From Amphiscolops sp. MND2022 (taxonomy: Eukaryota): DNA of 64,000 bases. The stretch is taken from the NCBI GenBank assembly GCA_964187785.1, contig OZ076409.1, positions 71,674,001 to 71,738,000 of the forward strand, given 5' to 3'. Positions 1-64,000 of this stretch are shown here, piece after piece. Within the stretch, counting starts at the first letter, position 1. Each line of letters starts with the position of its first letter. The notes beneath the pieces were generated by a model that ran no database searches, had not been told where the DNA came from, and saw only the letters and a program-made list of their open reading frames with translations. A program made the translations under genes and the position numbers.

Positions 1-1365
1 CATCAAAAATGGGCCAAAATTACACGAAAAAATTGACCTTAAAATATCAAAATGTCAAAAAATCATCAAAACCACAGTTTCTTGGCGTTCTATCAACTCC
101 ATATGATACCAAACCAGGTACCGCCAATCGTTTGAGTTATAATAAAAAAACGTCTTTTTTGGCAAGAATTCCATACCATAAATAATAATCATGTTCCATA
201 TAAGAAGCGAATCATTTCAGATATATACCCTGTTCATTTTTTTAATATTACCGATTATTAATTTATTAGATGTTTTGAATGTGAGCTTCCTAAAAGGTTC
301 AGGTGTGATGATACGTAAATAGAACCTTAGTTTCATCGAAATCTCAATTGAATATGTCCAATCTTAACCATCAGATAACAAGAAACACTTAAGTACATTC
401 CATCTCCCCATCGGGGGAGATGAGAATGTACTTTCGAGAAGCCAAATACGTCCAACATTCAAACTTTTGTAACTTTGTATGTAACTCCTGAAACGAAGAA
501 GGAATAAAATTGTTTCTGGTACATACATGAGTCTTTACTTCAGCTTCTATTTCTGCTGAACAAAACCATTCGACTCTTTTGCCGGAATTAGGATCAATTG
601 TATTACCCAGTGAACAAAGGCATGACTGAAAACGCTTACTAATTTGTTCATAATTTTCCGGCCTTCCGAAATGATGAAACGTCCACATAACTAAGATAGC
701 AAGTGAATGACTGCGAAATGCACCTTATTAGATGAGGTAAATAACGTGTAAGACTCTCCTTTATCCTAACATGAGGTTGAGTTATGATCATTTGAGAATA
801 GTTTGATATGTGACTACAATAGTATAAAACAAGTACATTTTATATGAATAACGCCGTGGAAAGCGTTCAGAAAGGACAGTAGGCTTGTTTGGAACATGTA
901 TGTGTGGTGTCCCTTGGTGGCGTTCGCTTAGTGTATATGTCGAGGGGTATTCGAGTTGTTATGATAGAATTTACAAACAAGTCTTTTGTTTTTTGGTTTT
1001 TTTAAAATGTCGTTAAGTACCTGCATTCTATCCCCTTCTCAGAGATGACGTGAAGTTACGTTTGCTAAATAAATGTCATCGAAAGATCACACTCCCGACG
1101 AAATTAACTATCTTAACACGTGTTTAGAATTTTAAATGAACAACCGTATAAGATTTTTATATTTCATTGAGTTTGATAAAGTCTTTTGTTCTTCTCACTA
1201 CTATTTCAACCAATACACATATCCGTTACCATATCACATGTCTCCATTAGTACAACGCCACATAGCGTTCCGACGCCCACAGTCTGTGGGCATTCCGAGG
1301 CATGCCCTTCGACGACGTATGGCAAATGGAGCCATGCCCGCCGTCTTTACGGCGGTAGCGGCTAG
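1..1365 (+). mobile_element. Class D unit, 3' part (partial)
   Basis: Nearly identical and colinear with 23941-25305 (offset 23940). Ends in hairpin CCGCCGT-CTTT-ACGGCGG plus TAGCGGCTAG. Mobility is inferred. Confidence 0.7.
391..433. other. Internal palindrome P2 (representative; in all C, D and E units)
   Basis: AAGTACATTC-CATCTCCCC-ATCG-GGGGAGATG-A-GAATGTACTT. Also at 16277-16315, 24331-24373, 35057-35099, 39827-39867, 44582-44624 and 53656-53696. Confidence 0.9.
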
Positions 1366-2906
1366 GTGGGCGGGGAAATTTCACCCCGTTTGTATTCGGC
1401 CGACGGGTAGGGTCCTGGCGGCCGACGATCCGCCTTAAGCTAGCGGTATGTAGCAGAAATTGCAAAAAAAAGACCTAAAATTTAATCTAACCATTAGAAT
1501 TTGCTCAAAATTTGCATGCGGCCCTCAAATCCTAATGCAAGACGAAGTTCCTGCTGACGCTAAGCGTTCTATAAACTTTATAAAAAGTTATGGCCAATTT
1601 TTTGTTCAAAATTTCAACATTTTTGGGAAAATTCTAATTTTTCACTTAATATCTCAAAATGTAATAATTTTTGGACTTTGACTGTGAAACAAGCTTGGAA
1701 CCTTCATTTCGTGGCTGTGGCATTGCACTGAACACAAAAGATGTAAAGTTTTTACATTTTTCGAAAATTCGAGATTTTTGAAATTTTTTTCACTACTATC
1801 AGTACCTCATATGTCAAAAACACATCAGAAAAAAATTTTTATTTGCTTTAAATTGGAAACCTTGGTATCCATGGTTACTGTCGGAACCTACTCGCAGCCA
1901 AACACCCAACAGTTTGCATCCAATGTGAAAATAAAATTTTTTTTTGGGTCATAAGCGTTTCACATGGATTTTACAACTTAGTTTCAATTTACAAATTGGT
2001 CATATTGAACACAATATTTTCATCGAAGCTTGTCAGATACCGCCCTAATGCTCACTAATGGGCCTACTCGCAACGTTGGAACCGTTTATAGTAATAGAAA
2101 GTTTTAAAAAAATATTTTCACCCGGTCTTCAGTCATTTTTCAGTCATTCGGAACTTAACTTAGAAAAATTTCGACCAAAATACCCATTTTTTGTCAGGTC
2201 GAAAAATCAAATTCAGATTTTTAAGCGAAATTATTTACTCTGACGTAACTAGTGGGCCCCATGATACTCAAAAACACGATTGGGACCGGTACCAAGGGCT
2301 CCAATTTCATATGAGCCGCGATAAGACGTTATTTTGAGCAACACGTCTCAATAGAGGTAAACATCTCGCAAGCCTGAAGTCACAGTGAAAAGTAATTTCA
2401 TCAAGAATTTACTCATTTTTGTCAATCACTATGTGCACAGAGTGCGCAGGATGAGTTTCAGCACTATAATGAGGTTTTTGATGTAATCGGCCTGCTCAAG
2501 GGTGTGTATGAGACATTTTTTTCCCATATAGCTATATTTTCCAAAATTTTTAGCCCATTATCTCAAAAACCTAACTTCGCAAAATGCTTTCAACTACTTT
2601 ATTCTAAGGTTAGAATATGAATGAACACTGTGGTTGATCAGAACCTCTCAATTTTTTTGTTTTCCGAAAAAATACCTTCGCATGGGTTACATTTATGGCA
2701 GAAGAGAAAGCAGAAGATAAAAAATACGCTATTTTGCTAAGATAGAAACGCGATGATTGTGCATAAATACCCTTTAAATACTTCTAACGCAACCTTATGG
2801 ACCCAATATGATTGGAAATACCGTTCACAGTCCTCACATGTACTCTTTCTACAATCCAGACTGCACATTTTTTGAAAATTTTACATGTAGCTTTAAACTG
2901 AATCTT

Positions 2907-2954
2907 GTGATAGCCTTTTAAGTTGACCTTGTGTCAACTTGGGAAGGCTATCAC
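2907..2954 (+). other. Internal palindrome P1 (representative; in all complete A and B units)
   Basis: GTGATAGCCTTTTAAGTTGAC-CTTGT-GTCAACTTGGGAAGGCTATCAC. The B copy is at 12854-12897. Both end about 420 nt before the unit end. Confidence 0.9.
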
Positions 2955-5389
2955 CACCAAAAACTATAAACAAAAACTACCATTTGTTAATCGGATTTCG
3001 CTGTCGATGCCTATTTTCGTGATTGTATACTACCGTTTGTATCTTCCATCATGTCAGCTGACGATAGCATGCAGAGTTTGAAAAAATACCTATGAACTCG
3101 AAGACATTTTTGTTTATTATTTGGTAAATAATTTTATTTCTAAATAATAAATAACAACTTCTAACCTTTGAATACTATCACATTTGTTTTCTCTTCCGTT
3201 ATCAGTCTTCCGTCACCCATGATGTCATGTCAGCCTATGTCATGACCCCGTGATTTCAACAACAACGCCATATACCAACATCAACGCCCACCGTCTGTGG
3301 GCATGCCGAGGCATGCCCTTCGACGACGTATGGCAAATTTATCGTTGCCCGCACTCTGGAGTGCGGTAGCAGCTAGGTGGGCGGGGGTAATTCCCCTTCA
3401 AAAAATTCGGCCGGCGGGTTGGGTCCTGCCGGACGTCAAATAGTGTGAAACATCCAGTAGGAAACGGCGACATAAATCAGCGATTTTAAAATTTAACCGT
3501 TAGATTTCGGATTTGGAGTGCATGCGGCCCCAAAATGCCCATACGAATCGAAGTTCCTGCTGACGTTAAGCGATAAAAACATTTTATAAAAAGTTATGGC
3601 CCATTTTACGTTCACCTATAAGGGTAAAATGAGGAAAATTTTTACAAAGTCGCTGATAACTCAAAATACATTATTTTTTGGACTTTGACTGTGAAACAAG
3701 CTTAGAACCTTCATTTCGTGGCTGTGGCATTGCACTGAACACAAAAGATGTAAAGTTTTTACATTTTTCGAAAATTCGACATTTTTGATTTTTTTTTCAC
3801 TACTATCAGTACACTATATGTCAAAAACACCTCTGAAAAAAATTATTATTTGCTTAAAATTGGAAACCTTGGTATCCATGGTTTCTGTCGGAACCTACTC
3901 GCTGCCAAACACCCAACAGTTTGCATCCAATGTGAATTTAAATTTTTTTTCGAGGTCATAAGGGTTTCACAAGGTTTTCATAACTTAGTATTAAACTACA
4001 AACTGGTCATTTTCAACATAATATCTTTGTCGAGGCATTTCGGATATAGTCCTATTGCTCACGAACGGTCCTACTGGCAACGTAATAACCATTTATAGAA
4101 ATGTAAAGTTATAAAAAAAATTTTTCACCCGGTCTTCAGTCATTTTTCAGTCATTCGGAACTTAACTTAGAAAAATTTCGACCAAAATATCCATTTTTTG
4201 TCAGGTCGAATAATCAAATTCAGATTTTTAAGCAAAATTATTAACTCTGACGTAACCCATGGGGCCCATGATACTCAAAACAACGATTGACACTGGTATC
4301 AATGGCTCCAATAACATATGAGTCGCGATAAGACGTTATTTTGAGCATTACGTCTCAATTGAGGTAAAGATCTCGCAAGCCAGCGATCACTGTGAAATGT
4401 GATTTCATCAAAAATTTACTCTTTTTTGTCAATCACTATGTGCACAGAATGCGTAGGGTGCGTTTCAGCACTATAATGAGGTTTTTGAAGGCATCGGGTT
4501 GCTCAAGGGGTGGTATGAGACATTTTTGTCCCATATACTACTGTATTTTCCAAAATTTTTAGCCCAATATCTGCAAATACAAACTTGACAAAATACTTTC
4601 AACTACTTTATTCAAAGATTACAATATAGATGAACACTGTGGTTGATCAGAAACTTTCATCTCTTTCGTTTTCCGAAATATTTCCCTTCGCATGTGTTAC
4701 ATTCGTAGCAGAAAAAAAATCGAAACTGAAAAATACGCAATTTTGCTAATATAGAATCGCAATGATTGTGCCTAAAAACTCTTTAAACACTTCTAACGCG
4801 ACCTTACGCACTCAAAATGATCGAAAATGCTATTCACAATGGTGACAAGTGCTCTTTCTACGATCCTGACTGGACAAGGTTTGCATATTTTTCAAGTACC
4901 TGTCAGCTAAATCTTGTGATAGCCTTTTCAGTTGGCCTTGTGTCAACTTGGGAAGGCTATCACATCAAAAAACCATCAATAAAAATAATTTTTGTTTATT
5001 GGATCTTACAGTCGAAACTTTTTTTCGTGATTCTATACTACCGTTAGTATATTTCATCAGGTCACCTTACGATTGCATTCAGTCTTTGATAAAAACCTAT
5101 GAACTCAAAGTCACATTTATATATTTTTTTGCCAAAAAAACATCAAAAATATCTAAAATATATAAAATAGAGTCTTGAACATTTTTACATTTCAAGTTTC
5201 TGCCGTTATTAGGCCAATCAACGTCCTAGAGCCACATCCTGTCATACTGTACAACGCCACATAGTGTTGCGACGTGCACAGTCTGTGGGCATGCCGAGGC
5301 ATGCCCTTCGACGACGTATGCCGAATACCGCGGGCCTACGCCCGCGCTCCCCGGCTAGGTGGGCGGGGGTAATTCCCCAACAAAAAAAT

Positions 5390-5417
5390 CGGCCGGCGGG
5401 TCGGGTCCTGCCGGCCG
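5390..5417 (+). other. 5' head hairpin with GGGTNGGGTCC apex (representative copy)
   Basis: CGGCCGGCGGG-TCGGGT-CCTGCCGGCCG. Equivalents with different stems are at 1397-1424, 11355-11378 and 15356-15377. Confidence 0.85.
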
Positions 5418-8400
5418 TCCAAAATCAAAATCCTCCTAGTAGAAAACGGCATGTCAAACGAGCTATTTTTTTATTTAACCATACGAATTTCACCATTTTT
5501 TGCATGCGGCCCTGAAATGGCCATACGAGACGAAGTTCCTGCTGACGTTTTGCGATGTAAATGTTTTATAAAAAGTTATGGCCGATTTGTCATTCACCTA
5601 GAAGGGTAAAATGAGGAAAATTTTAACAAAGTCGCTGATAACTCAAAATGTGGTAATTTTTGGACTTTGACTGTGAAACAAGCTTGGAACCTTCATTTCG
5701 TGGCTGGGGCATTGGACTGAACACAAAAGATGTAAAGTTTTTACGTTTTTTGAAAATTCGACATTTTTGAAATTTTTTTCACTACTATCAGTACCCCATA
5801 TGTCAAAAACACCTCAGAAAAATATTTTTATTTGCTTTAAATTGGAAACCTTGGTATCCATGGTTTCTGTCGGAACCTACTCGCAGCCAAACACCCAACA
5901 GTTTGCATCCAATGTGAAAATAAAAATTTTTTCGGGGTCATAAGCGTTTCACAAGGATTTCTCAACTTAGTATTAATTTACAAAATGGTCATTTTGAACA
6001 TAATATTTTCATCGAGGCTTGTCGGCTATAGCCTTAATGTTCTAGAACGGTCCCACTGGCAACGTAGCAACCATTTATAGTAATATAAAAGGTTAAAAAA
6101 TTTTTTTCACCCGGTCTTCAGTCATTTTTCAGACATTCGGAACATAACTTAGAAAATTTTCGACCCAAATACCCATTTTTTGTCAGGTCGAAAATTAAAA
6201 TTCAGCTATTAAAGCAAAATTATTTACTCTGACGTAACCAGTGGGGCCCATGATACTCAAAAACACCATTGGCACTGGTACCAATGGCTCCAATAACATA
6301 TGAGTCGCGATAAGACGTTATTTTGAGCAATACGTCTCAATTGAGGTAAAGATCTCGCAAGCCAGCGATCACTGTGAAATGTAAATTCATTAAAAATTTA
6401 CTCATTTTCGTCAATCACCATGTGCACAGAGTGCGTAGGGTGAGTTCCAGCACTATAATGAGGTTTTTGAAGGCATCGGGTTGCTCAAGGGGTGGTATGA
6501 GACATTTTTTTCCTATATACTACTGTATTTTCCAAAATTTTTAGCCCAATATCTGGAAATACAAACTTGACAAAATACTTTCAACTACTTTATTCAAAGG
6601 TTACAATATAGATGAACACTGTGGTTGATCAGAAACTTTCATCTCTTTCGTTTTCCGAAATATTTCCCTTCACATGTGTTATATTTTTAGCAGAATAAAA
6701 AATCGAAACTGAAATATACGCTATTTTGCTAATATAGAATCGCAATGATTGTGCCTAAAAACTCTTTAAACACTTCTAACGCAACCTTACGCACCCGAAA
6801 TGATCGAAAATGCTATTCACAATTGTGACATGTGCTCTTTCTACGATCCTGGCTGGACAAGGTTTGCATATTTTTCAAGTACCTGTCTGCTGAATCTTGT
6901 GATAGCCTTTTAAGTTGGCCTTGTGTCAACTTGGGAAGGCTATCACTTCAAACAACCATCAACAAAAATAATTTTTGTTTATTGGATATTACAGTTGATA
7001 CCTTTTTTCGTGATTCTATATTACCGTTAGTATATTCCATGAGGTCACCTTACGATTGCATTGAGACTTTGATAAAAACCTATGAACTCAAAGTCACATT
7101 TATATATTTTTTTGCCCAAAAAAATCATCAAAAACATCTATAATATATAAAATAGAGTCTTTAACATTTTTACGTTTCAAGTTTCTGCCGTTATTAAGCC
7201 AATCAACTTCCTACAGCCACGCTCTCTGTCATTCTGTACAACGCCACATAGTGTTGCGACGTGCACGGTCTGTGGGCATGCCGAGGCATGCCCTTCGACG
7301 ACGTATGCCGAATACCGCGGGCCTACGCCCGCGCTCCCCGGCTAGGTGGGCGGGGGTAATTCCCCAACAAAAATTACGGCCGGCGGGTTGGGTCCTGCCG
7401 GACGTTCAAATAGCGCGAAGCATCTAGTAGAAAACAAGGAGTCCTGAAACAGCGATTTTAAAATTGAACCGTTAGAATTTGGTTTTAGATTGCATGCGGC
7501 CCTAAAATCCCCATACGAATGGAAGTTCCTGCTAGCGTTAAGCGATTGAAATAATATATAAAAAGTTATGGCCTATTTTTGGGTCACCGAGAAGGTCAAA
7601 ATGAAGAAAATTTTAACTAAGTTGCTGATAACTCAAAATGTGTTAATTTTTGGACTTTGACTGTGAAACAAGCTTAGAACCTTCATTTCGTGGCTGTGGC
7701 ATTGCACTGAACACAATAGATGTAGAGTTTTTACATTTTTTGAAAATTCGACATTTTTGATTTTTTTTCACTACTATCAGTACACTATATGTCAAAAACA
7801 CCTCTGAAAAAAATTATTATTTGCTTAAAATTGGAAACCTTGGTATCCATGGTTTCTGTCGGAACCTACTCGCTGCCAAACACCCAACAGTTTGCATCCA
7901 ATGTGAATTTAAAATTTTTTTCGAGGTCATAAGGGTTTCACAAGGTTTTCATAACCTAGTATTAAACTACAAACTGGTCATTTTCAACATAATATCTTTG
8001 TCGAGGCATGTCGGATATAGTCCTATTGCTCACGAACGGTCCTACTGGCAACGTAATAACCATTTATAGAAATGTAAAGTTATAAAAAAATTTTTTCACC
8101 CGGTCTTCAGTCATTTTTCAGTCATTCGGAACTTAACTTAGAAAAATTTCGACCAAAATATCCATTTTTTGTCAGGTCGAAAAATCAAATTCAGATTTTT
8201 GAGCAAAATTATTAACTCTGACGTAACCCATGGGGCCCATGATACTCAAAACAACGATTGACACTGGTATCAATGGCTCCAATAACATATGAGTCGCGAT
8301 AAGACGTTATTTTGAACATTACGTCTCAATTGAGGTAAAGATCTCGCAAGCCAGCGATCACTGTGAAATGTGATTTCATCAAAAATTTACTCTTTTTTGT

Positions 8401-11243
8401 CAATCACTATGTGCACAGAATGCGTAGGGTGCGTTTCAGCACTATAATGAGGTTTTTGAAGGCATCGAGTTGCTCAAAGGATGGTATGAGACATTTTTGT
8501 CCCATATACTACTGTATTTTCCAAAATTTTTAGCCCAATATCTGGAAATACAAACTTAACAAAATACTTTCAACTACTTTATTCAGAGGTTACAATATAG
8601 ATGAACACTGTGGTTGATCAGAAACTTTCATCTCTTTCGTTTTCCGAAATATTTCCCTTCGCATGTGTTACATTCGTAGCAGAAAAAAAAATCGAAACTG
8701 AAAAATACGCAATTTTGCTAATATAGAATCGCACTGATTGTGCCTAAAAACTCTTTAAACACTTCTAACGCAACCTTAGGCACCGAAAATGATCGAAAAT
8801 GCTATTCACAATGGTGACATGTGCTCTTTCTACGATCCTGGCTGGACAAGGTTTGCATATTTTTCAAGTACCTGTCAGCTAAATCTTGTGATAGCCTTTT
8901 CAGTTGGCCTTGTGTCAACTTGGGAAGGCTATCACATCAAAAAACCATCAACAAAAATAATTTTTGTTTATTGGATCTTACAGTCGATACTTTTTTTCGT
9001 GATTCTATACTACCGTTAGTATATTTCATCAGGTCACCTTACGATTGCATTCAGTCTTTGATAAAAACCTATGAACTCAAAGTCACATTTATATATTTTT
9101 TGGCCAAAAAAACATCAAAAATATCTAAAATATATAAAATAGAGTCTTTAACATTTTTACGTTTCAAGTTTTTGCCGTTATTAAGCCAATCAACTTCCTA
9201 CAGCCACGCTCTCTGTCATACTGTACAACGCCACATAGTGTTGCGACGTGCACAGTCTGTGGGCATGCCGAGGCATGCCCTTCGACGACGTATGCCGAAT
9301 ACCGCGGGCCTACGCCCGCGCTCCCCGGCTAGGTGGGCGGGGGTAATTCCCCAACAAAAAAATCGGCCGGCGGGTCGGGTCCTGCCGGCCGTCCAAAATC
9401 AAAATCCTCCTAGTAGAAAACGGCATGTCAAACGAGCTATTTTTTTATTTAACCATACGAATCTCACCATTTTTTGCATGCGGCCCTGAAATGGCCATAC
9501 GAGACGAAGTTCCTGCTGACGTTTTGCAATGTAAATGTTTTATAAAAAGTTATGGCCGATTTGTCATTCACCTAGAAGGGTAAAATGAGGAAAATTTTAA
9601 CAAAGTCGCTGATAACTCAAAATGTGTTAATTTTTGGACTTTGACTGTGAAACAAGATTGGAACCTTCATTTCGTGGCTGGGGCATTGGACTGAACACAA
9701 AAGATGTAAAGTTTTTACGTTTTTTGAAAATTCGACATTTTTGAAATTTTTTTCACTACTATCAGTACCCCATATGTCAAAAACACCTCAGAAAAAAATT
9801 TTTATTTGCTTTAAATTGGAAACCTTGGTATCCATGGTTTCTGTCGGAACCTACTCGCAGCCAAACACCCAACAGTTTGCATCCAATGTGAAAATAAAAA
9901 ATTTTTCGGGGTCATAAGCGTTTCACAAGGATTTCTCAACTTAGTATTAATTTACAAAATGGTCATTTTGAACATAATATTTTCATCGAGGCTTGTCGGC
10001 TATAGCCTTAATGTTCTAGAACGGTCCCACTGGCAACGTAGCAACCATTTATAGTAATATAAAAGGTTAAAAAATTTTTTTCACCCGGTCTTCAGTCATT
10101 TTTCAGACATTCGGAACATAACTTAGAAAATTTTTGACCCAAATACCCATTTTTTGTCAGGTCGAAAATTAAAATTCAGCTATTAAAGCAAAATTATTTA
10201 CTCTGACGTAACCAGTGGGGCCCATGATACTCAAAAACACCATTGGCACTGGTACCAATGGCTCCATTAACATATGAGTCGCGATAAGACGTTATTTTGA
10301 GCAATACGTCTCAATTGAGGTAAAGATCTCGCAAGCCAGCGATCACTGTGAAATGTGATTTCATCAAAAATTTACTCATTTTTGTCAATAACTATGTGCA
10401 CAGAGTGTGTAGGGTGCGTTTCAGCACTATAATGAGGTTTTTGAAGGCATCGGGTTGCTCAAGGGGTGGTATGAGACATTTTTTTCCTATATACTACTGT
10501 GTTTTCCAAAACTTTTAGCCCATTATCAGGAAAAAATAATTTGACAAATTACTTTCAACTACTTTATTCAAAGGTTACAATATAGATGAACACTGTGGTT
10601 GATCAGAAACTTTCATCTCTTTCGTTTTCCGAAATAATTCCCTTCGAATGTGTTACATTTGTAGCCGGAAAAAAAACCGAAACTAAAAAATACGCGATTT
10701 TGCTGAGATAGAACCGGGATAATTGTGTCTAAATACTCTTTAAATACTTCTAACGCGACCTTACGGACCCAAAAGGATTAAAAATGCCACTCACAATGCT
10801 GACATGTGCTCTTTCGACGATCCTGGCTGGACAAGTTTTGCAAATATTTCAAGTACCTGTTAACTGAATTTTGTGATAGCCTTTTAAGTTGGCCTTGTGT
10901 CAACTTGGGAAGGCTATCACATCAAAAAACTTTCAACAAAAAAACTTTTTGTTTATTGGATATTGCTGTCGATACCTTTTTTAGTGATTCTATACTACCG
11001 TTAGTATATTCCATCAGGTCACCAGACGATTGTATTCAGTATTTGATGAAAATTTATGAACTCGAAGTCTCTTTCATATGTTTTTTGTTCAAAAAAATTA
11101 TCAAAAAAATTTATATTATAAACAATTGAGTCTTTAACTTTTTTATTCCCCAATTTTCCAGTGTTATTAGGCTCATCAACTTCCTACTGCCACATCCAGA
11201 CATTAGTACAACGCCACAAAGTGTTGCGACGTCCACCGTCTGT

Positions 11244-11263
11244 GGGCATGCCGAGGCATGCCC
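11244..11263. promoter_or_regulatory. 20-bp palindrome GGGCATGCCGAGGCATGCCC; candidate p53-family response element (representative copy)
   Basis: 9-bp inverted arms around GA. Read as two decamers (GGGCATGCCG, AGGCATGCCC) it matches RRRCWWGYYY x2 at 19/20 positions. The motif is certain; the function is inferred. Confidence 0.5.
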
Positions 11264-11293
11264 TTCGACGACGTATGCCAAAAATAGCGCCCT

Positions 11294-11321
11294 CCGCGGT
11301 CACTACCGCGGTAGCAGCTAG
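11294..11321 (+). terminator. Helitron-like 3' terminus: 18-nt hairpin + CTAG (representative copy)
   Basis: CCGCGGT-CACT-ACCGCGG ends 10 nt before the unit end (TAGCAGCTAG). This matches the known Helitron 3' signature of a 16-20 nt palindrome about 10-12 nt upstream of a CTRR end. Confidence 0.55.
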
Positions 11322-48500: not shown

Positions 48501-49524
48501 TTATTTTGAGCAATACGTCTCAATTGAGGTAAACATCTCGCAAGCCTGGGATCACAGTGGATTGTAAATTCATCAAAAGTTTACTCGTTTTTGTCAATCA
48601 CTATGTGCACAGAGTGCGTAGGGTGAGTTCCAGCACTATAATGAGGTTTTTGAAGGCATCGGGTTGCTCAAGGGGTGGTATGAGACATTTTTTTTCTATA
48701 TACTACTGTATTTTCCAAAATGTTTAGCCCATTATCTGGAAAAACTAACTTGACAAAATACTTTCAATGATTTTATTCAAAGGCTACAATGTAGATGAAC
48801 CCAGTGGTTGATAAGAAACTTTCATCTCTTTCGTTTTCCGAAATATTTCCCTTCGCATGTGTTACATTTGTAGCAGAAAAAAAATCGAAACTGAAAAATA
48901 CGATATTTTGCTAATATAGAATCGCAATGATTGTGCCTAAAAACTCTTTAAACACTTCTAACGCGACCTTACGCACCCAAAATGATCAAAAATGCTTTTC
49001 ACAATGGTGACATGTGCTCTTTCAACGATCCTGACTGAACAATTTTCGCAAATTATTCAAGTACCTGTTAACTGAATCTCGTGATAGCCTTTTAAGTTGG
49101 CCTTGTGTCAACTTGGGAAGGCTATCACATCAAAAAATTTTCAACAAAAATACATTTTGTTCATTGGAAATGACAGTCGATATATAATTTCGTGATTCTA
49201 TACTACCGTTAGTACCTTCCATTAAGTCACCTGACGATTGCTTTCAGTCTTTGATAAATACCTATGAACTCGAAGTCTTATTTATAAATTTTGTGCTAAA
49301 AATAAACATCAAAACTATCCAAATTATTTAAAATTGAGTCTTTACCGTTTTTGTTTTTCTTTTTCTACTGTTATTAGGCTCATCAACTTCCTACAGCCAC
49401 GCTCTCTGTCATTAGTACAACGCCACATAGTGTTGCGACGTGCACGGTCTGTGGGCATGCCGAGGCATGCCCTTCGACGACGTATGCCGAATGCACTGCG
49501 GCGACGCCCGCAGTCCAAGGCTAG
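45558..49524 (+). mobile_element. Two class A units (45558-47540, 47541-49524)
   Basis: 1983 and 1984 bp. The second has a unique terminal hairpin ACTGCGG-CGACGC-CCGCAGT. Confidence 0.7.
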
Positions 49525-52500: not shown

Positions 52501-54605
52501 TACCGATCGACTCTACTTCCATTGTAGGTTACCAGAATCTTGTTTAGAACATTTGTTGACGGATGCAAAAAAAAATAAAACCCTCCAAAAATGGGCCAAA
52601 ATTACACGAAAAAATTGACCTTAAATTTTTAAAATGTCAAAAAATCATCAAAACCACAGCTTCTTGGGGTTCTATCAACTCCACGTGGTCCACAGAGTAT
52701 GCTAAAACAGGTTTTACCTGTTTCTGAGCTATATGTGAAAAAACCGACATTTTGGGGAAGAAAAACATACCATTTCCTAAAAAATTTCAAATGCACGCCA
52801 TTTGCCGTATGAGAATAGCACAGAAAACTATCACATACCGATCAACTCTACTTCTATTGTAGATTATCAGATTTTTGTTTAGAACAAATTTTTATGGATA
52901 TAAAAAATTTTTAAACCCTCCAAAAATGAGCCAAAATAACACGAAAAAATGGACCCTAAATTTTTAAAATGTCAAAAAATTATCCAAACCACAGCTTCTT
53001 GGGGTTCTATCAGCTCCACGTGGTCCACAGAGTATGCTAAAACAGGTTTTGCCCGTTTTTGAGCAGTATATGAAAAAGCCGACATTTTTGGGGAAGAAAA
53101 ACATACCATTTCCTAAATAATTTCAAATGCAGGCAATTTGCCGTATGAGAGTAGCACAGAAAACTATCACACACCGATCAACTCTACTTCTTTTGTAGAT
53201 TATCAGAATTATGTTTAGAGTAAAGTTTTATGGATATGAAAAATTTTTATACCCTCCAAAAATGGGCCAAAATGACACGAAAAAATTGACCTCAAATTTT
53301 TAAAATGTCAAAAAATTATCCAAACCACAGCGTCTTGGCGTTCTATCAACTCCAAATGACCTTCAGAGTATACCAAACCAGGTATTGCCAATCTTTTGAG
53401 CAATATTTAAAAACACCGACTATTTGGCAAGAACACCATAATATGTTCCATATAAGAAGTGAATCATTCCACATATATACCCGGTCTAATATTTTCAAAT
53501 TAGCGATAACATTAATACATGATGTTTTTTGAAAGTGAGCTTCATAAGAGGTTGAGATGTAATAATACGTAAATGGACCCTAAGTTTCATTGAAATCTCA
53601 ATGGAATACGTCCAATCAACTTCAATCCTAACTATTATATAACAAGAAACACTTGAGTACATTCCATCTCCCCATCGGGGGAGATGAGAATGTACTTTTC
53701 AAAAGCCAAAATTTTCGAATTTTAAATCTTTTGTAACATTGTATGTAACTGTTGAAACGATGAACGAATAAAAATGCTTCTAGTACCTTCATCAATTTTT
53801 GCTTCAGCTCCTATTTCTGCAGAACAAAACCAAAAGACACACTTACAGCAGTTAAGTTCGATTGTATAACTCAGTGAATAAAGGTATGACTGAGGAAGTT
53901 CACAAGTTGTTTCAAAAGTTTCCGGCCTTCCAAAATCATGAAACGTCCACACAACCAAGATAGCAAGTGAAAGAATGCTGAATGCACCTTATTAGATGAG
54001 ATAAATAACGTGTGGAACTTGCCATTATCTTAAGATGACGTTGATTTATGATCTTTTAAGGATAGTTCGATATGTGACCACAATAGTGGAAAACTTATTA
54101 CTATTTGAAGAACACCGTGGAAAGCGTTCAGAAAGGACAGTATATTTGTTTCGAGCATGCATGCGTGTGTTCCTTTGGTGACGTTAGCTTAGTGTACATG
54201 ACGGAGGTATTCGAGAGATTATGATAGAGTTTACTCACAAGTCTTTGTTTTTTAAAACTTTCTATGCCGTTGAGTACATTCGTAAGGTACATCCATCCCC
54301 TTCTCTGGGAATGTACGTTTGCCAAATGACTGTCATCCAAAATTCGTAATCCGGACGAGTTTAACTACATAAACATGTGATGAGCGTTTTCTATTCAAAA
54401 CCGAATAACTTTTTTTTTCTCGAAAATGATGATGGTTTTGATTTTGATGTCTTCTACTTTTATCATCATGCAAACGACCTTACCATGTCTCTCTTCTGTC
54501 GTCATTTGTACAACGCCACATAGCGTTCCGACGCCCACCGTCTGTGGGCATGCCGAGGCATGCCCTTCGACGACGTATGCCAAATGAGCCATACCCGCAC
54601 TCTGG
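49525..54605 (+). mobile_element. Class E unit (5081 bp), one extra subrepeat, 3'-truncated
   Basis: Matches 36032-40793 plus one additional ~338-bp subrepeat, and lacks the last 17 nt including CTAG. Confidence 0.7.
51754..53353 (+). repeat. Internal ~338-bp tandem subrepeat, about 4.7 copies (class E)
   Basis: One extra, nearly identical copy (starts near 52025 and 52361) relative to 38261-39523. Confidence 0.9.
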
Positions 54606-57600
54606 GTGGGCGGGGGTAATTCCCCAACAAAAAAATCGGCCGGCGGGTCGGGTCCTGCCGGCCGTCCAAAATCAAAATCCTCCTAGTAGAAAACGGCATG
54701 TCAAACGAGCTATTTTTTTATTTAACCATTAGAATTTCACCATTTTTTGCATGCGGCCCTGAAATGGCCATACGAGACGAAGTTCCTGCTGACGTTTTGC
54801 GATGTAAATGTTTTATAAAAAGTTATGGCCGATTTGTCATTCACCTAGAAGGGTAAAATGAGGAAAATTTTAACAAAGTCGCTGATAACTCAAAATGTGT
54901 TAATTTTTGGACTTTGACTGTGAAACAAGCTTGGAACCTTCATTTCGTGGCTGTGGCATTGCACTGAACGCAAAAGATGTAAAGTTTTTACATTTTTTGA
55001 AAATTTGACATTTTTGAAATTTCTTTCACTACTATCAGTATCATATATGTCAAAAACACCTCAGAAAAAAAATTTTATTTGCTTTAACTTGGAAACCTTG
55101 GTATCCATGGTTTCTGTCGGAACCTACTCGCAACCAAACACCCAACAGTTTGCATCCAGTGTGAATTTAAAAATTTTTTCGAGGTCTTAGGTGTTTCACA
55201 AGGATTTCTCAACTTAGTATCAAATTACAAATTGGTCATTTTAAACACATTATTTTCATCGAAGCGTGTCAGATACCGCCCTAATGCTCACGAACGGGCC
55301 TACTGGCAACGTTGGAACAATTTATCGTGATAGAAAGTTTTAAAAAAATTTTTTCACCCGGTCTTCAGTCATTTTTCACACATTCGGAACTTAACTTAGA
55401 AAAATTTCAACCGAAAAACCCATTTTTTGTCAGGTCGAAAATTCAAAGTCAGCTTTTTAAGCAAAATTATCAACTCTGACGTAAACAGTGGGGCCCATGA
55501 TACTCAAAACAACGATTGGGGTTGGTACCAATGGCTCCAATAACATATGAGTCGCGATAAGACGTTATTTTGAGCAATATGTCTCAATTGAGTTAAAGAT
55601 CTCGCCAACCAGTGATCACTGTGAAATGTAAATTCATTAAAAATTTACTCATTTTCGTCTATCACCATGTGCACAGAGTGCGTAGGGTGAGTTCCAGCAC
55701 TATAATGAGGTTTTTGAAGGCATCGGGTTGCTCAAGGGGTGGTATGAGACATTTTTTTCCTATATACTACTGTGTTTTCCAAAACTTTTAGCCCATTATC
55801 AGGAAAAAATAATTTGACAAAATACTTTCAACTACTTTATTCAAAGGTTACAATATAGATGAACACTGTGGTTGATCAGAAACTTTCATCTCTTTCGTTT
55901 TCCGAAATAATTCCCTTCGAATGTGTTACATTTGTAGCCGGAAAAAAAACCGAAACTAAAAAATACGCGATTTTGCTGAGATAGAACCGGGATAATTGTG
56001 TCTAAATACTCTTTAAATACTTCTAACGCGACCTTACGGACCCAAAAGGATTAAAAATGCCACTCACAATGCTGACATGTGCTCTTTCGACGATCCTGGC
56101 TGGACAAGTTTTGCAAATTTTTCAAGTACCTGTTAACTGAATTTTGTGATAGCCTTTTAAGTTGGCCTTGTGTCAACTTGGGAAGGCTATCACATCAAAA
56201 AACTTTCAACAAAAATACTTTTTGTTTATTGTATATTGCTGTCGATACCTTTTTTTGTGATTCTATACTACCGTTAGTATATTCCATCAGGTCACCAGAC
56301 GATTGTATTCAGTATTTGATAAAAACTTATGAACTCGAAGTCTTTTTCATATGTTTTTTGTTCAAAAAAATTATCAAAAAAAATTATATTATAAACAATT
56401 GAGTCTTTAATTTTTTTATTTCCCAATTTTCCAGTGTTATTAGGCTCATCAACTTCCTACTGCCACATCCAGACATTAGTACAACGCCACAAAGTGTTGC
56501 GACGTCCACCGTCTGTGGGCATGCCGAGGCATGCCCTTCGACGACGTATGCCAAAAATAGCGCCCTCCGCGGTCACTACCGCGGTAGCAGCTAGGTGGGC
56601 GGGGGTAATTCCCCAACAAAAATTACGGCCGGCGGGTTGGGTCCTGCCGGACGTCAAATAGCAAAGAATATCTAGTAGGAAACGGCGACACAGAATCGCG
56701 ATTTTTAAATCTAACCACAATTTTTTGGACTTGGAGTGCATGCGGCCCTAAAATGCCCATACGAATCGAAGTTCCTGCTGACGTTAAGCGATTGAAATAA
56801 TATATAAAAAGTTATGGCCCATTTTTCACTCACAAAGAAGGGTAAAATGAGGAAATTTTTAACAAAGTCGCTGATAACTCAAAATGTGTTAATTTTTGGA
56901 CATTGACTGTGAAACAAGCTTGGAACCTTCATTCCGTGGCTGTGGCATTGCACTGAACACAAAAGATGTAAAGTTTTTAGATTTTTTGAAAATTCGAAAT
57001 TTTTGAAATTTTTTTCACTACTATCAGTACCCCATATGTCAAAAACGCCTCAGAAAAATTTTTTTATTTTCTTTAAATTGGAAACCTTGGTATCCATGGT
57101 TTCTGTTGGATCCTACTCGCAGTCAAACACCCAACAGTTTGCATCCAATGTGGAAATAAAATTTTTTTCGGGGTCATAAGCGTTTCACAAAGATTTCTCA
57201 ACTTAGTTTCAATTTACAAATTGGTCACATTGAACACATTATTTTCATCGAAGCGCGTCAGATACCGCCCTAAAGCTCACGAACGGTCCTACTGGCAACG
57301 TAGCAACCATTTATAGTAATATAAAAGATTAAAAAATTTTTTTCACCCGGTCTTCAGTCATTTTTCAGTCATTCGGAACTTAACTTAGAAAAATTTCGAC
57401 CAAAATACCCATTTTTTGTCAGGTCGAAAAATCAAATTCAGATTTTTAAGCAAAATTATTAACTCTGACGTAACTCATGGGGCCCATGATACTCAAAACA
57501 ACGATTGACACTGGTATCAATGGCTCCAATAACATATGAGTCGCGATCGGACGTTATTTTGAGCAATACGTCTCAATTGAGGTAAAGATCTCGCAAGCCA

Positions 57601-60600
57601 GCGATCACTGTCAAATGTGATTTCATCAAAAATTTGTTCATTTTTGTCAATCATTATGTGCACAGAATGCGTAGGGTGCGTTTCAGCACTATAATGAGGT
57701 TTTTGAATGCATCGAGTTGCTCAAGGGGTGGTACGAGACATTTTTGTTCATATACTACTGTATTTTCCAAAATTTTTAGCCCAATATCTGGAAATACAAA
57801 CTTGACAAAATACTTTCAACTACTTTTTTCAAAGGTTACAATATAGATGAACACTGTGGTTGATCAGAAACTTTCATCTCTTTCGTTTTCCGAAATATTT
57901 TCCTTCGCATGTGTTATATTTGTATCAGAAAAAAAATCGAAACTGAAAAATACGCTATTTTGCTAATATAGAATCGCAATGATTGTGCCTAAAAACTCTT
58001 TAAACACTTCTAACGCGACCTTACGCACCCAAAATGATCGAAAATGCTATTCACAATGGTGACATGTGCTCTTTCAACGATCCTGGCTGGACAAGGTTTG
58101 CATTTTTTTCAAGTACCTGTCAGCTGAATCTTGTGATAGCCTTTTAAGTTGGCCTTGTGTCAACTTGGGAAGGCTATCACATCAAACAACCATCAACAAA
58201 AATAATTTTTGTTTATTGGATATTACAGTTGATACCTTATTTCGTGATTCTATACTACCGTTAGTATTTTCCATGAGGTCACCTGACGATTGCATTCAGT
58301 CTTTGATAAATACCTATGAACTCGAAGTCATATTTATAAATTTTGTGCTAAAAATAAACATCAAAATTATCCAAATAATTTAAAATTGAGTCTTTACCGT
58401 TTTTGTTTTTCTTTTTCTACTGTTATTAGGCCCATCAACTTCCTACAGCCACGCTCTCTGTCATTAGTACAACGCCACATAGTGTTGCGACGTCCACCGT
58501 CTGTGGGCATGCCGAGGCATGCCCTTCGACGACGTATGCCAAAAATAGCGCCCTCCGCGGTCACTACCGCGGTAGCAACTAGGTGGGCGGGGGTAATTCC
58601 CCAACAAAAAAATCGGCCGGCGGGTCGGGTCCTGCCGGCCGTCCAAAATCAAAATCCTCCTAGTAGAAAACGGCATGTCAAACGAGCTATTTTTTTATTT
58701 AACCATACGAATTTCACCATTTTTTGCATGCGGCCCTGAAATGGCCATACGAGACGAAGTTCCTGCTGACGTTTTGCGATGTAAATGTTTTATAAAAAGT
58801 TATGGCCGATTTGTCATTCACCTAGAAGGGTAAAATGAGGAAAATTTTAACAAAGTCGCTGATAACTCAAAATGTGTTAATTTTTGGACTTTGACTGTGA
58901 AACAAGCTTGGAACCTTCATTTCGTGGCTGGGGCATTGGACTGAACACAAAAGATGTAAAGTTTTTACGTTTTTTGAAAATTCGACATTTTTGAAATTTT
59001 TTTCACTACTATCAGTACCCCATATGTCAAAAACACCTCAGAAAAAAATTTTTATTTGCTTTAAATGGGAAACCTTGGTATCCATGGTTTCTGTCGGAAC
59101 CTACTCGCAGCCAAACACCCAACAGTTTGCATCCAATGTGAAAATAAAAATTTTTTCGGGGTCATAAGCGTTTCACAAGGATTTCTCAACTTAGTATTAA
59201 TTTACAAAATGGTCATTTTGAACATAATATTTTCATCGAGGCTTGTCGGCTATAGCCTTAATGTTCTAGAACGGTCCCACTGGCAACGTAGCAACCATTT
59301 ATAGTAATATAAAAGGTTAAAAAATTTTTTTCACCCGGTCTTCAGTCATTTTTCAGACATTCGGAACATAACTTAGAAAATTTTCGACCCAAATACCCAT
59401 TTTTTGTCAGGTCGAAAATTAAAAATCAGCTATTGAAGCGAAATTATTTACTCTGACGTAACCAGTGGGGCCCATGATACTCAAAAACACCATTGGCACT
59501 GGTACCAATGGCTCCAATAACATATGAGTCGCGATAAGACGTTATTTTGAGCAATACGTCTTAATTGAGGTAAAGATCTCGCAAGCCAGCGATCACTGTG
59601 AAATGTGATTTCATCAAAATTTTACTCATTTTTGTCAATAACTATGTGCACAGAGTGTGTAGGGTGAGTTCCAGCACTATAATGAGGTTTTTGAAGGCAT
59701 CGGGTTGCTCAAGGGGTGGTATGAGACATTTTTTTCCTATATACTACTGTGTTTTCCAAAACTTTTAGCCCATTATCAGGAAAAAATAATTTGACAAAAT
59801 ACTTTCAACTACTTTATTCAAAGGTTACAATATAGATGAACACTGTGGTTGATCAGAAACTTTCATCTCTTTCGTTTTCCGAAATAATTCCCTTCGAATG
59901 TGTTACATTTATAGCCGGAAAAAAACCGAAACTAAAAAGTACGCGATTTTGCTGAGATAGAACCGAGATAATTGTGTCTAAATACTCTTTAAATACTTCT
60001 AACGCGACCTTACGGACCCAAAAGGATTAAAAATGCCACTCACAATGCTGACATGTGCTCTTTCGACGATCCTGGCTGGACAAGTTTTGCAAATTTTTCA
60101 AGTACCTGTTAACTGAATTTTGTGATAGCCTTTTAAGTTGGCCTTGTGTCAACTTGGGAAGGCTATCACATCAAAAAACTTTCAACAAAAATACTTTTTG
60201 TTTATTGGATATTGCGGTCGATACCTTTTTTTGTGATTCTATACTACCGTTAGTATATTCCATCAGGTCACCAGACGATTGTATTCAGTATTTGATAAAA
60301 ACTTATGAACTCGAAGTCTTTTTCATATGTTTCTTGTTCAATAAAATTATCTAAAAAATTTATATTATAAACAATTGAGTCTTTAACTTTTTTATTTCCC
60401 AATTTTCCAGTGTTATTAGGCTCATCAACTTCCTACTGCCACATCCAGACATTAGTACAACGCCACAAAGTGTTGCGACGTCCACCGTCTGTGGGCATGC
60501 CGAGGCATGCCCTTCGACGACGTATGCCAAAAATAGCGCCCTCCGCGGTCACTACCGCGGTAGCAGCTAGGTGGGCGGGGGTAATTCCCCAACAAAAATT

Positions 60601-63600
60601 ACGGCCGGCGGGTTGGGTCCTGCCGGACGTCAAATAGCAAAGAATATCTAGTAGGAAACGGCGACACAGAATCGCGATTTTTAAATCTAACCACAATTTT
60701 TTGGACTTGGAGTGCATGCGGCCCTAAAATGCCCATACGAATCGAAGTTCCTGCTGACGTTAAGCGATTGAAATAATATATAAAAAGTTATGGCCCATTT
60801 TTCACTCACAAAGAAGGGTAAAATGAGGAAATTTTTAACAAAGTCGCTGATAACTCAAAATGTGTTAATTTTTGGACATTGACTGTGAAACAAGCTTGGA
60901 ACCTTCATTTCGTGGCTGTGGCATTGCACTGAACACAAAAGATGTAAAGTTTTTAGATTTTTTGAAAATTCGAAATTTTTGAAATTTTTTTCACTACTAT
61001 CAGTACCCCATATGTCAAAAACGCCTCAGAAAAATTTTTTTATTTGCTTTAAATTGGAAACCTTGGTATCCATGGTTTCTGTCGCATCCTACTCGCAGTC
61101 AAACACCCAACAGTTTGCATCCAATGTGGAAATAAAAATTTTTTCGGGGTCATAAGCGTTTCACAAGGATTTCTCAACTTAATTTCAAGTTACAAATTGG
61201 TCACATTGAACACATTATTTTCATCGAAGCGCGTCAGATACCGCCCTAAAGCTCACGAACGGTCCTACTGGCAACGTAGCAACCATTTATAGAAATGTAA
61301 AGTTATAAAAAAAATTTTTCACCCGGTCTTCAGTCATTTTTCAGTCATTCGGAACTTAACTTAGAAAAATTTCGACCAAAATATCCATTTTTTGTCAGGT
61401 CGAAAAATCAAATTCAGATTTTTAAGCAAAATTATTAACTCTGACGTAACCCATGGGGCCCATGATACTCAAAACAACGATTGACACTGGTATCAATGGC
61501 TCCAATAACATATGAGTCGCGATAAGACGTTATTTTGAGCATTACGTCTCAATTGAGGTAAAGATCTCGCAAGCCAGCGATCACTGTGAAATGTAATTTC
61601 ATCAAAAATTTACTCATTTTTGTCAATCATTATGTGCACAGAATGCGTAGGGTGCGTTTCAGCACTATAATGAGGTTTTTGAATGCATCGAGTTGCTCAA
61701 GGGGTGGTACGAGACATTTTTGTCCCATGTACTACTGTATTTTCCAAAATTTTTAGCCCAATATCTGGAAATACAAACTTGACAAAATACTTTCAACTAC
61801 TTTATTCAAAGGTTACAATATAGATGAACACTGTGGTTGATCAGAAACTTTCATCTCTTTCGTTTTCCGAAATATTTTCCTTCGCATGTGTTATATTTGT
61901 ATCAGAAAAAAAATCGAAACTGAAAAATACGCTATTTTGCTAATATAGAATCGCAATGATTGTGCCTAAAAACTCTTTAAACACTTCTAACGCGACCTTA
62001 CGCACCCAATATGATCGAAAATGCTATTCACAATGGTGACATGTGCTCTTTCAACGATCCTGGCTGGACAAGGTTTGCATATTTTTCAAGTACCTGTCAG
62101 CTGAATCTTGTGATAGCCTTTTAAGTTGGCCTTGTGTCAACTTGGGAAGGCTATCACATCAAACAACCATCAACAAAAATAATTTTTGTTTATTGGATAT
62201 TACAGTTGATACCTTATTTCGTGATTCTATACTACCGTTAGTATATTCCATGAGGTCACCTTACGATTGCATTCAGACTTTGATGAAAACCTATGAACTC
62301 AAAGTCACATTTATATATTTTTTGCCCAAAAAAATCATCAAAAACATCTAATATATATAAAATTGAGTCTTTAACTTTTTTACGTTTCAAGTTTCTGCCG
62401 TTATTAAGCCAATCAACTTCCTACAGCCACGCTCTCTGTCATACTGTACAACGCCACATAGTGTTGCGACGTGCACGGTCTGTGGGCATGCCGAGGCATG
62501 CCCTTCGACGACGTATGCCGAATACCGCGGGCCTACGCCCGCGCTCCCCGGCTAGGTGGGCGGGGGTAATTCCCCAACAAAAATTACGGCCGGCGGGTTG
62601 GGTCCTGCCGGACGTCAAATAGCAAAGAATATCTAGTAGGAAACGGCGACACAGAATCGCGATTTTTAAATCTAACCACAATTTTTTGGACTTGGAGTGC
62701 ATGCGGCCCTGAAATGCTCATACGAATCGAAGTTCCTGCTGACGTTAAGCGATTGAAATAATATATAAAAAGTTATGGCCCATTTTCCACTCACATAGAA
62801 GGGTAAAATGAGGAAATTTTTAACAAAGTCGCTGATAACTCAAAATGTGTTAATTTTTGGACATTGACTGTGAAACAAACTTGGAACCTTCATTTCGTGG
62901 CTGTGACATTGCACTGAACAGAAAAGATGTAGAGTTTTTACATTTTTTGAAAATTCGACATTTTTGAAATTTTTTTCACTACTATCAGTACACCATATGT
63001 CAAAAACGCCTCAGAAAAAAATTTTTCTTTGCTTTAAATTGGAAACTTTGGTATCCATGGTTTCTGTCGGAACCTACTCGCAGCCAAACACCCAACAGTT
63101 TGCATCCAATGTGAAAATAAAAATTTTTTCTGGGTCATAAGCGTTTCACAAGGATTTCTCAACTTAGTATTAATTTACAAAATAGTCAATTTGAACACAA
63201 TATTTTCATCGAGGCTTGTCGGCTATAGCCCTAATGTTCTAGAACGGTCCCAATGGCAACGTAGGAACCATTTATAGTAATAGAAAGTTAAAAAAAATAT
63301 TTTCACCCGGTCTTCAGTCATTTTTCAGTCATTCGGAACTTAACTTAGAAAAATTTCGACCAAAATACCCATTTTTTGTCAGGTCGAAAAATCAAATTCA
63401 GATTTTTAAGCAAAATTATTAACTCTGACGTGACTCATGGGGCCCATGATACTCAAAACAACGATTGACACTGGTATCAATGGCTCCAATAACATATGAG
63501 TCGCGATCGGACGTTATTTTGAGCAATATGTCTCAATTGAGGTAAAGATCTCGCAAGCCAGCGATCACTGTCAAATGTGATTTCATCAAAATTTTACTCA

Positions 63601-64000
63601 TTTTTGTCAATCATTATGTGCACAGAATGCGTAGGGTGCGTTTCAGCACTATAATGAGGTTTTTGAATGCATCGAGTTGCTCAAGGGGTGGTATGAGACA
63701 TTTTTGTCCCATATACTACTGTATTTTCCAAAATTTTTAGCCCAATATCTGGAAATACAAACTTGACAAAACACTTTCAACTACTTTATTCAAAGGTTAC
63801 GATATAGATCAACACTGTGGTTGATCAGAAACTTTCATCTCTTTCGTTTTCCGAAATATTTTCCTTCGCATGTGTTATATTTGTATCAGAAAAAAAATCG
63901 AAACTGAAAAATACGCTATTTTGCTAAAATAGAATCGCAATGATTGTGCCTAAAAACTCTTTAAACACTTCTAACGCGACCTTACGCACCCAAAATGATC
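54606..64000 (+). mobile_element. Four class A units (54606-56594, 56595-58582, 58583-60570, 60571-62555) and a partial unit with an A-type 5' part (62556-64000)
   Basis: 1989, 1988, 1988 and 1985 bp. Several are mosaics of other units. Confidence 0.7.

Follow-up and report, generated by a model that had tools for sequence, protein, structure and literature searches.

How do long runs of mutually unrelated, non-coding units come to be joined, all in one orientation, at a single short motif? The question is raised by a 64,000-bp stretch of the 1.07-Gb assembly of Amphiscolops sp. MND2022 (contig OZ076409.1, hereafter C1, positions 71,674,001-71,738,000; below, the window), which is occupied from position 1 to 64,000, on the plus strand, by a mixed head-to-tail array of 26 non-autonomous units. 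A first-pass annotation, made from the letters of the window, had read these as elements mobilised in trans that insert specifically at each other's ends. We consider it likely that the window is the non-autonomous part of a self-targeting, Helitron-like rolling-circle transposon array.

Cutting the window at CT(A/G)G|GTG yields 25 junctions and 26 units, in the order d-AAAAA-B-A-C-BB-D-AAA-D-E-D-AA-E-AAAA-a, with unit lengths of 1,982-2,011 bp for A, 1,972-1,995 bp for B, 1,276 bp for C and 4,761-5,081 bp for D and E. None of the 821 rows of a self-BLAST of the window lies on the minus strand, so all units are co-oriented, and they abut without a spacer; on order, orientation and spacing the first-pass annotation was right. 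Its tail ending in CTAG is present at 24 of the 25 junctions, the other (54,602-54,608) reading CTGG|GTG. A hairpin loop occurs in all 25 heads and a GC-rich core in all 25 tails, and each of the 24 complete units, as well as the 5' partial unit, has one internal palindrome. The claim that these modules are shared throughout thus holds for head, core and the presence of a palindrome, and fails for the palindrome's sequence, of which there are two unrelated kinds (one in A and B, the other in C, D and E). Likewise, the interiors of A, B and C are as unalignable as was claimed, given that sensitive blastn finds in common only the terminal modules, the palindrome and scattered weak matches of at most 50 bp, and these three classes stand, whereas D and E, proposed as separate, are 83% identical over their full length, share their first ~1.5 kb with A, and are best regarded as a single class. 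The partner proteins described below have no tblastn match in the window, which contains no convincing open reading frame (ORF), yet the wider array, read continuously over C1:71,594,001-71,858,000 (264 kb, window included), holds coding units, and the supposed lack of coding cargo is therefore a property of the window and not of the array. A search of the genome for the junction module, as the annotation had suggested, returned 3,653 matches to a junction-plus-loop pattern and none to its reversed control. A small-RNA gene array was also considered, and is ruled out for the first 26 kb, where Rfam gave no match at E <= 1 (positions 1-26,000), shared core included.

The order of units carries a record of how they were joined, which we examined over 96 units and 95 junctions in the 264 kb. 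Linkage between sequence variants is strong within the head (z 30) and across the shared core (z 21.5), and is lost between a tail and the next head (z 1.1, p 0.13); being kept across the core and lost at the junction, it indicates exchange in the 7-bp junction and not through homology of the core. Thirty pairs of units reach 99% identity or more; in no case are the two neighbours, and the units that follow them match in 0 of 28 pairs. The first-pass annotation had pointed to a strict higher-order period as what would speak for unequal crossover; no periodicity was found at lags 1-39 and no trimer is repeated in the 264 kb. Identity is 88.3% between neighbouring A units and likewise 88.3% between A units paired at random, near-identical units show no significant spatial clustering (p 0.06-0.73), and units whose identity to their closest relative ranges from 92.9% to 99.8% (10th-90th percentile) are interleaved. 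Units are joined at junctions only: none of 129 units scored for interruption lacks its tail, and the 96 units of the 262-kb stretch contain 247 internal CTAG and 40 internal CT(A/G)G(A/G/T)T. Taken together, the break in linkage at the junction, the non-adjacency of near-identical units and the absence of interruptions support growth of the array unit by unit at junctions, and not by unequal crossover or over-replication. The idea of insertion at each other's ends is borne out to this extent; insertion there is not exclusive, as the solitary copies described next make clear.

The ends of the unit and its target can be read from insertions outside arrays. One common tail exists in 1,454 copies, followed by GTG in 1,419, by A or T in 35, by C in none (control 2) and by G plus a non-T in none, GT plus a non-G lying outside the search; solo insertions in other DNA thus make up about 2.4% of this tail type. 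At 30 loci drawn from the 35 tails followed by A or T, the core was found by fuzzy match in 20, and the right flank begins AT in 22, TT in 6, and AC and AG in 1 each. Left flanks in non-element DNA (n = 12) read CTAG in 6, CTGG in 2, CTTG in 2, CTCG in 1 and GTCC in 1. For a solo A unit in a repeat resembling transfer RNA (tRNA), the sequence runs on across the site, without interruption or duplication, in 14 of 14 paralogues, which were the top scorers among 666 candidates, and 2 more empty paralogues came to light for 8 solos within the DNA examined. Flanks, tail fate and empty sites consequently define the unit as GTG...CTRG, inserted 3' of CTNG without target duplication, the last point being as the annotation had it. 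No empty site was found for an array at 29.5 Mb, whose right flank is a common repeat and whose left flank was matched at 0 of 11 other loci, and 11 of 20 array-end loci have no real head within about 5.5 kb.

Several individual sites add detail. The loop region of the tRNA-like dispersed repeat (666 candidates; L099, L081, L137-L151) has two CTAG motifs, and two independent insertions seem to have entered the repeat at neighbouring positions. At L115, the CTAG at the end of a B unit is followed 12 nt later by a CTGG that opens another head, an insertion beside a junction and not at it, and in the C1:3.49-Mb array (L031 near 7300) the last unit breaks off ~90 nt past its head and gives way to a host repeat, the break lying at an internal CTAG or close to one. 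The orientation of arrays can change: at C1:23.978 Mb (L038:2270-4650) a pair of truncated A units is arranged face to face, and transposase matches move from one strand to the other within clusters at C2:102.6-102.8 Mb and C3:2.55-2.72 Mb. On C2, no more than about 20 kb separates the array from the end of the contig. About 100 nt from the left end of one array (L039 near 7700-8000), on the opposite strand, lies a stretch that we take to resemble an RNA-recognition-motif exon.

The array also holds an intact autonomous partner. Weak-scoring long ORFs, found through the Helitron Rep domain, are clustered and oriented as the arrays are, and all 7 of the Rep-helicase (RepHel) loci examined lie amid array junctions. 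The nearest autonomous unit (14,083 bp; C1:71,601,601-71,615,683, L011:7601 to L013:1683) lies outside the window, 58-72 kb upstream in the same array, has the same head, core and junctions as the window units, and ends in CTGG. Its product is a 2,526-aa Rep-helicase with an HUH motif, two tyrosines, a Pif1 helicase and a C-terminal GIY-YIG domain, in which Pfam recognises Helitron_like_N (PF14214) and PIF1 (PF05970) above cut-off; H1317/H1319, Y1489/Y1493 (YxxxY) and the Walker A motif are invariant in an alignment of 24 sequences. A family profile matches SLX1 nucleases at its C-terminus (E 2.5e-13), and Helraiser in the helicase only (E 4e-16). The longer, Rep/helicase-encoding unit with the same termini that the first-pass annotation had called for is thus present, as is the HUH enzyme to which it had attributed mobilisation in trans. 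RepHel proteins of these arrays are 2,200-2,850 aa long, and three families about 30% identical occur at the 7 loci, with ratios of nonsynonymous to synonymous substitution (dN/dS) of 0.07 and 0.11 in the two computable pairs, dS being saturated in 2 of 4. Movement is unit by unit: one autonomous element is present on two contigs, in copies whose 99.57% identity extends over 14,093 bp from one junction motif to the other, with different neighbours on each. Among the 150 transposase matches listed, 35 fall in C1:70.5-76.5 Mb (read over the continuous 264 kb and 60 kb at two other places); by eye, all 35 are on the plus strand and 28 have open frames of at least 2,100 aa.

All three RepHel families also contain homologues of a second ORF. 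No solved structure matched this ORF by profile, and a single-sequence fold reached a predicted local distance difference test score (pLDDT) of 32; the fold predicted from 13 sequences (pLDDT 81) is close to OB folds of the RPA type (Foldseek E 1e-5 to 5e-4; VIA Z 8.0-9.2, root-mean-square deviation 3.1-3.8 over 103-116 residues), and on this model related autonomous units encode an RPA-like OB-fold protein. A small ORF ahead of the nearest RepHel (L011:8908-9411) has a weak GDSL/SGNH hydrolase match (E 0.037, far below cut-off). The N-terminal region of a 2,603-aa RepHel (L022/L021, C5:22.67-22.69 Mb) matches the OTU-containing part of an HLE2-like protein, and PF02338 is present in several database relatives. 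A 3-kb unit at L039 (C1:24,014,000-24,017,100) has the head and tail type of the 14-kb autonomous element, and is likely an internal-deletion derivative of it.

The mechanism that we propose turns on the element's own end recreating its target, as in IS91. The transposase would bind and nick an origin composed of CTRG|GTG and the downstream head hairpin, and every array unit would sit between two complete origins. A nick at one origin and termination at the next would release a unit-length single-stranded circle (the tandem junction is identical to the expected circle joint), which the enzyme would transfer into another origin, and new arrays would be founded by the occasional insertion at a bare CTNG^(A/T)T. 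We infer that the transposase itself targets the junction. A head may be sufficient to make a unit a substrate, and since any head-bearing unit would then qualify, dozens of unrelated families could enter one array. More speculatively, the SLX1-like GIY-YIG domain might resolve a branched intermediate, and the internal palindromes might aid second-strand synthesis.

Other histories could yield a similar array. Mixed multimers may have formed off the chromosome, from joined circles or template switching at origins, and been integrated as blocks at bare CTNG, the chromosomal junction not being preferred. This account, which we regard as unlikely, predicts precise junctions and uninterrupted units just as stepwise growth does; undisturbed solos exist, and one 8-unit array lies between a host CTAG and host DNA and has a two-unit head/tail combination twice. 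However, arrays range from 1 unit to at least 264 kb, transposase matches keep to one strand over about 6 Mb, and the interleaved units are of very different relatedness; given this spread of sizes and ages, stepwise growth fits better than a few block insertions. A transposase that sees the short CTNG only, with arrays produced by a chromatin hotspot or by purging elsewhere, would agree with the use of bare CTNG^(A/T)T sites by solos, and with the dispersed transposase matches, which by eye look broken more often than those in arrays and suggest turnover outside them. Yet between 40 and 200 internal sites in the 262 kb fit the solo target and none is used, against 95 junctions that are, which largely refutes this account and makes it very unlikely.

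An ordinary complex satellite, shaped by unequal crossover or gene conversion in the core, or by over-replication of one Helitron, has in its favour that tandem Helitron arrays are known (PMC5876387, PMC12001565, PMC11934779) and that the A units, with a mutual identity of 81-98% when complete, are mosaics of subtypes, within which recombination probably occurs. Crossover in the core would nevertheless unlink the sequence before it from that after it, whereas the break lies in the 7-bp motif, and neither a period nor repeated trimers nor likeness of neighbouring A units is seen. A satellite is on these grounds highly improbable; crossover as the main source of the order is refuted by the linkage and neighbour statistics, in blocks of up to 264 kb. 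That separate repeats or circles were stitched together by the assembler at a common motif is a concern in so far as the array is known here from assembled sequence alone. We find it scarcely credible: solos and short arrays that lie in other DNA have the same ends, and matching empty sites exist for them, the one sequence common to all junctions is 7 bp long, several tail types lack the core, and arrays occur on several large contigs.

Growth by self-targeting, which we favour, does not explain everything. The predecessors match in 2 of about 28 near-identical pairs, classes show some preference for their neighbours (class-to-class adjacency z 2.4, p 0.014; tail versus downstream class p 0.03), and repeated subclass dimers number 5 against 2.5 +/- 1.4 expected (p 0.08). 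The repeated combination in the 8-unit array also weighs against it, as do intact solos that have received no second unit (L099, L100, L106), the GTCC among the left flanks (CTNG being present in 11 of 12), and the composition of arrays, which varies among regions in a way for which equal self-targeting gives no account. Units A to E have only their termini in common with the autonomous families, too little to assign them to one of these, and the GIY-YIG domain of the nearest copy scores below the Pfam cut-off (19.2 versus 22.6 bits). As to regional composition, A, D and B dominate around the window, 1.3-kb units at C1:74.0 Mb, and 1.0- and 4.7-4.9-kb units at C3:3.2 Mb (L129-L136).

The transposase is, on its sequence, a member of a divergent Helitron-like group with many relatives. 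In a tree that took this genome's own HLE1-like (2) and HLE2-like (3) proteins for reference and included 20 database proteins chosen by hand, 23 members form a branch apart from both (bootstrap 100, stem 1.31); the outgroup was small, and neither the Paramecium clade nor the unclassified clusters of HELIANO entered the tree. The Rep motifs can be aligned with those of HLE1-like and HLE2-like proteins, and the best match to the HLE1-like proteins of this genome is confined to the helicase (E 2e-10). GIY-YIG is found in 14 of 15 relatives (one under cut-off), and DUF6570, a marker of HLE2, in 0 of 15 as against 3 of 3 HLE2-like controls of the same genome. Searched against representatives at 50% identity, the Rep region matches 171 clusters at E <= 1e-30. 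A JGI metagenome contig encoding a RepHel 28% identical begins with the same head loop in a different stem (head profile E 3e-34). Viral contigs yielded no relatives by protein or by head pattern. Nothing indicates a tyrosine recombinase, for which the scanned RepHel and second-ORF proteins gave no Pfam match, no genome search having been aimed at one. On balance we lean towards a widespread eukaryotic clade (RepHel with an SLX1-like GIY-YIG domain, plus an RPA-like protein) whose transposase would integrate sequence-specifically into its own origin, a site shared by dozens of unrelated families, autonomous and non-autonomous, that would build megabase, integron-like cassette arrays as a safe harbour of their own; these arrays may act as centromeric or subtelomeric DNA. 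Against such breadth, the JGI contig starts inside the head, its junction lying beyond the edge, and no arrays were seen in other organisms, for which this is the one informative contig.

The terminal modules are best described from the first complete junction. The head (1366-1560, plus strand), the putative origin, consists of GTG, a short hairpin, a covarying stem and boxes to about +190; the stem encloses the conserved loop GG(T/G)AGGG(T/C)CC (at 1405 in this example), and in 46 of 48 head types (2 having no anchor) its own arms pair at -7.9 kcal/mol, compared with -5.98 +/- 0.21 for permuted arms. Heads found by pattern start with GTG in 231 of 232 cases and GCG in 1. A junction-free head model found 238 looped heads, 214 of them scored as having CTNG just before; by eye, 21 of the remaining 24 do as well, the three exceptions being a deletion, GTCC and CTGT. 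A head variant with GTG and the downstream boxes, and without the conserved loop, occurs at normal junctions (L018 near 4413; L019, L027, L133-L136). The tail (1252-1365) consists of the GC-rich palindromic core (1252-1316) and a unit-specific part of ~45-50 nt that ends in CTAG and often forms a hairpin, which varies from -12 to -13 kcal/mol in some tails to near zero in others. The kind-1 palindrome of A and B units, bulged and exemplified at 2905-2952, folds at -15.8 to -17.3 kcal/mol in three 70-nt windows; fuzzy search found no internal palindrome in 6 autonomous units.

Along the plus strand, the window opens with the 3' part of a D unit (1-1365), followed by five A units of ~2 kb each (1366-11321), a B unit (11322-13316), an A unit (13317-15306), the C unit (15307-16582; kind-2 palindrome at 16274-16315), two B units (16583-20530), a D unit with its A-like first ~1.5 kb (20531-25305; kind-2 palindrome at 24330-24371), three A units (25306-31270), D, E and D units (31271-45557), two A units (45558-49524), an E unit with one additional 336-bp repeat (49525-54605), and four A units with the start of a fifth (54606-64000). 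The example junction CTAG|GTG, the putative nick, termination and target site, is at 1362-1368 (boundary 1365/1366), and the other units end at 3376, 5358, 7345, 9332, 11321, 13316, 15306, 16582, 18558, 20530, 25305, 27291, 29278, 31270, 36031, 40793, 45557, 47540, 49524, 54605, 56594, 58582, 60570 and 62555. D and E units contain 3.8-4.8 copies of a 336-bp tandem repeat (22761-24041, 33502-34767, 38262-39596, 43027-44292 and 51755-53354), and A positions 815-1195 are present in them again, diverged (68-70%), at about 1536-1916. The second E unit closes with a CTGG that lies in its tail-hairpin loop (54575-54608), ~17 nt before the usual CTAG, with a clean join to GTG, an apparent early termination.

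If our reading is true, it adds to unequal crossover and over-replication a further route to megabase repeat arrays, gives a Helitron-like lineage ends of the bacterial IS91 type, and opens the target choice of eukaryotic HUH transposases to direct test, since enzymes that are both intact and young are available, as is a short candidate target, CTAG|GTG with its hairpin. Genome engineering, too, would have an interest in such an enzyme from a eukaryote, which places units of 1-17 kb at a defined site without duplication.

We compare these elements with known systems as described in the sources cited. Canonical Helitrons (HLE1; Helraiser) have a fused Y2-HUH Rep and Pif1, a CTRR 3' end, often after a hairpin, no target duplication, and non-autonomous partners (PMC11417382, PMC5876387); an RPA-like accessory gene is known from plants (PMC4683698). 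HLE1 elements run TC...CTRR at A^T, and HLE2 elements target T^T (PMC11417382). The array elements resemble HLE1 in the fused Y2-HUH/Pif1 protein, the absence of duplication and the non-autonomous copies. Their ends (CTAG/CTGG) fit CTRR, with a preceding hairpin that is clear in some tails and close to nil in others. They differ in beginning with GTG and not TC, in targeting CTNG^ and not A^T, in a conserved structure at the 5' end with a 3' hairpin that is variable or missing, in the C-terminal GIY-YIG domain, in arrays that mix unrelated families, and in a transposase on a separate branch. Proto-Helentron, too, ends in CTAG (PMC11417382). With HLE2 (Helentron, Helitron2, proto-Helentron) the array elements share a large RepHel, sometimes with OTU, and a hairpin near the 5' end; unlike HLE2 they have no T^T target, DUF6570 or APE endonuclease, and again branch separately. 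Internal tandem repeats are a feature of HLE2 non-autonomous copies, as of the array's non-autonomous units. Terminal inverted repeats were absent from the window self-BLAST at E 1e-10, a threshold that very short ones would escape. Tools keyed to TC...CTRR or T^T ends would overlook the array elements. The HELIANO text mentions GIY-YIG once, for one Sphagnum HLE2 family, and its unclassified clusters could contain the present group. In the literature consulted, with Repbase, Dfam and supplements outside its scope, we found neither a GIY-YIG RepHel clade nor mixed, self-targeted Helitron arrays.

Some known systems are close in their insertion habits. The Paramecium Helitron clade has a RepHel outside HLE1 and HLE2, a strict orientation, a proposed specific target, and right ends in CCAA, a match to the telomere repeat into which it inserts (10.1101/2025.11.06.686955). 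The target there is a host telomere repeat and here, on our reading, the element's own junction; the words GIY and CTAG are absent from the main text of that paper (10.1101/2025.11.06.686955). Replitrons are eukaryotic HUH transposons that insert orientation-specifically 3' of a short target, with a Y1 Rep without helicase and direct terminal repeats inside the element (PMC10288648); the style of insertion is alike and the architecture unrelated. The two-tyrosine relaxase TrwC inserts incoming DNA at a further copy of oriT, the site that it nicks and binds (PMC3264647), and offers a model for origin-to-origin insertion, but is an enzyme of a conjugative plasmid, not a transposon, and builds no arrays.

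Other systems are close in the form of their arrays. Tandem Helitron arrays are attributed to over-replication of one element (PMC11934779, PMC5876387, PMC12001565, PMC5148889). Those of plant centromeres, bats, Xenopus and Hydractinia are head-to-tail and co-oriented like the present array, with the difference that a single element makes them up. Xiong et al. 2016 reportedly also ascribed tandem Helitron arrays to over-replication. The HeT-A/TART/TAHRE arrays of Drosophila mix three elements (PMC10088271). They are likewise head-to-tail and co-oriented, but consist of retroelements added at chromosome ends. Their order is irregular. The centromeric arrays of Meloidogyne have Helitrons between them (PMC13404089), and more broadly Helitrons occur among the satellites of centromeres (10.64898/2026.09.17.752431).

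The ends of the array units are most readily compared with those of the IS91 family (IS91, IS801, IS1294), rolling-circle elements with a Y2-HUH enzyme, no target duplication, palindromes at the origin and circular intermediates (PMC13181058). The targets at their origin ends are tetranucleotides (CTTG, GTTC, GTCC, CTCG), with a related tetranucleotide at the termination end, which in IS91 finishes in CTCG (PMC13181058). The array units similarly have a tetranucleotide target at the origin end, a matching far end and no duplication, and CTTG, CTCG and GTCC are among the flanks of their solos. IS91 is bacterial and lacks a helicase (PMC10288648), whereas the array transposase is a RepHel that has one, and the likeness is one of ends; the IS91-family text consulted (PMC13181058, PMC10288648) mentions no self-targeted arrays. 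The element of the present arrays consequently appears to be Helitron-like, with IS91-like ends and a habit of targeting itself.

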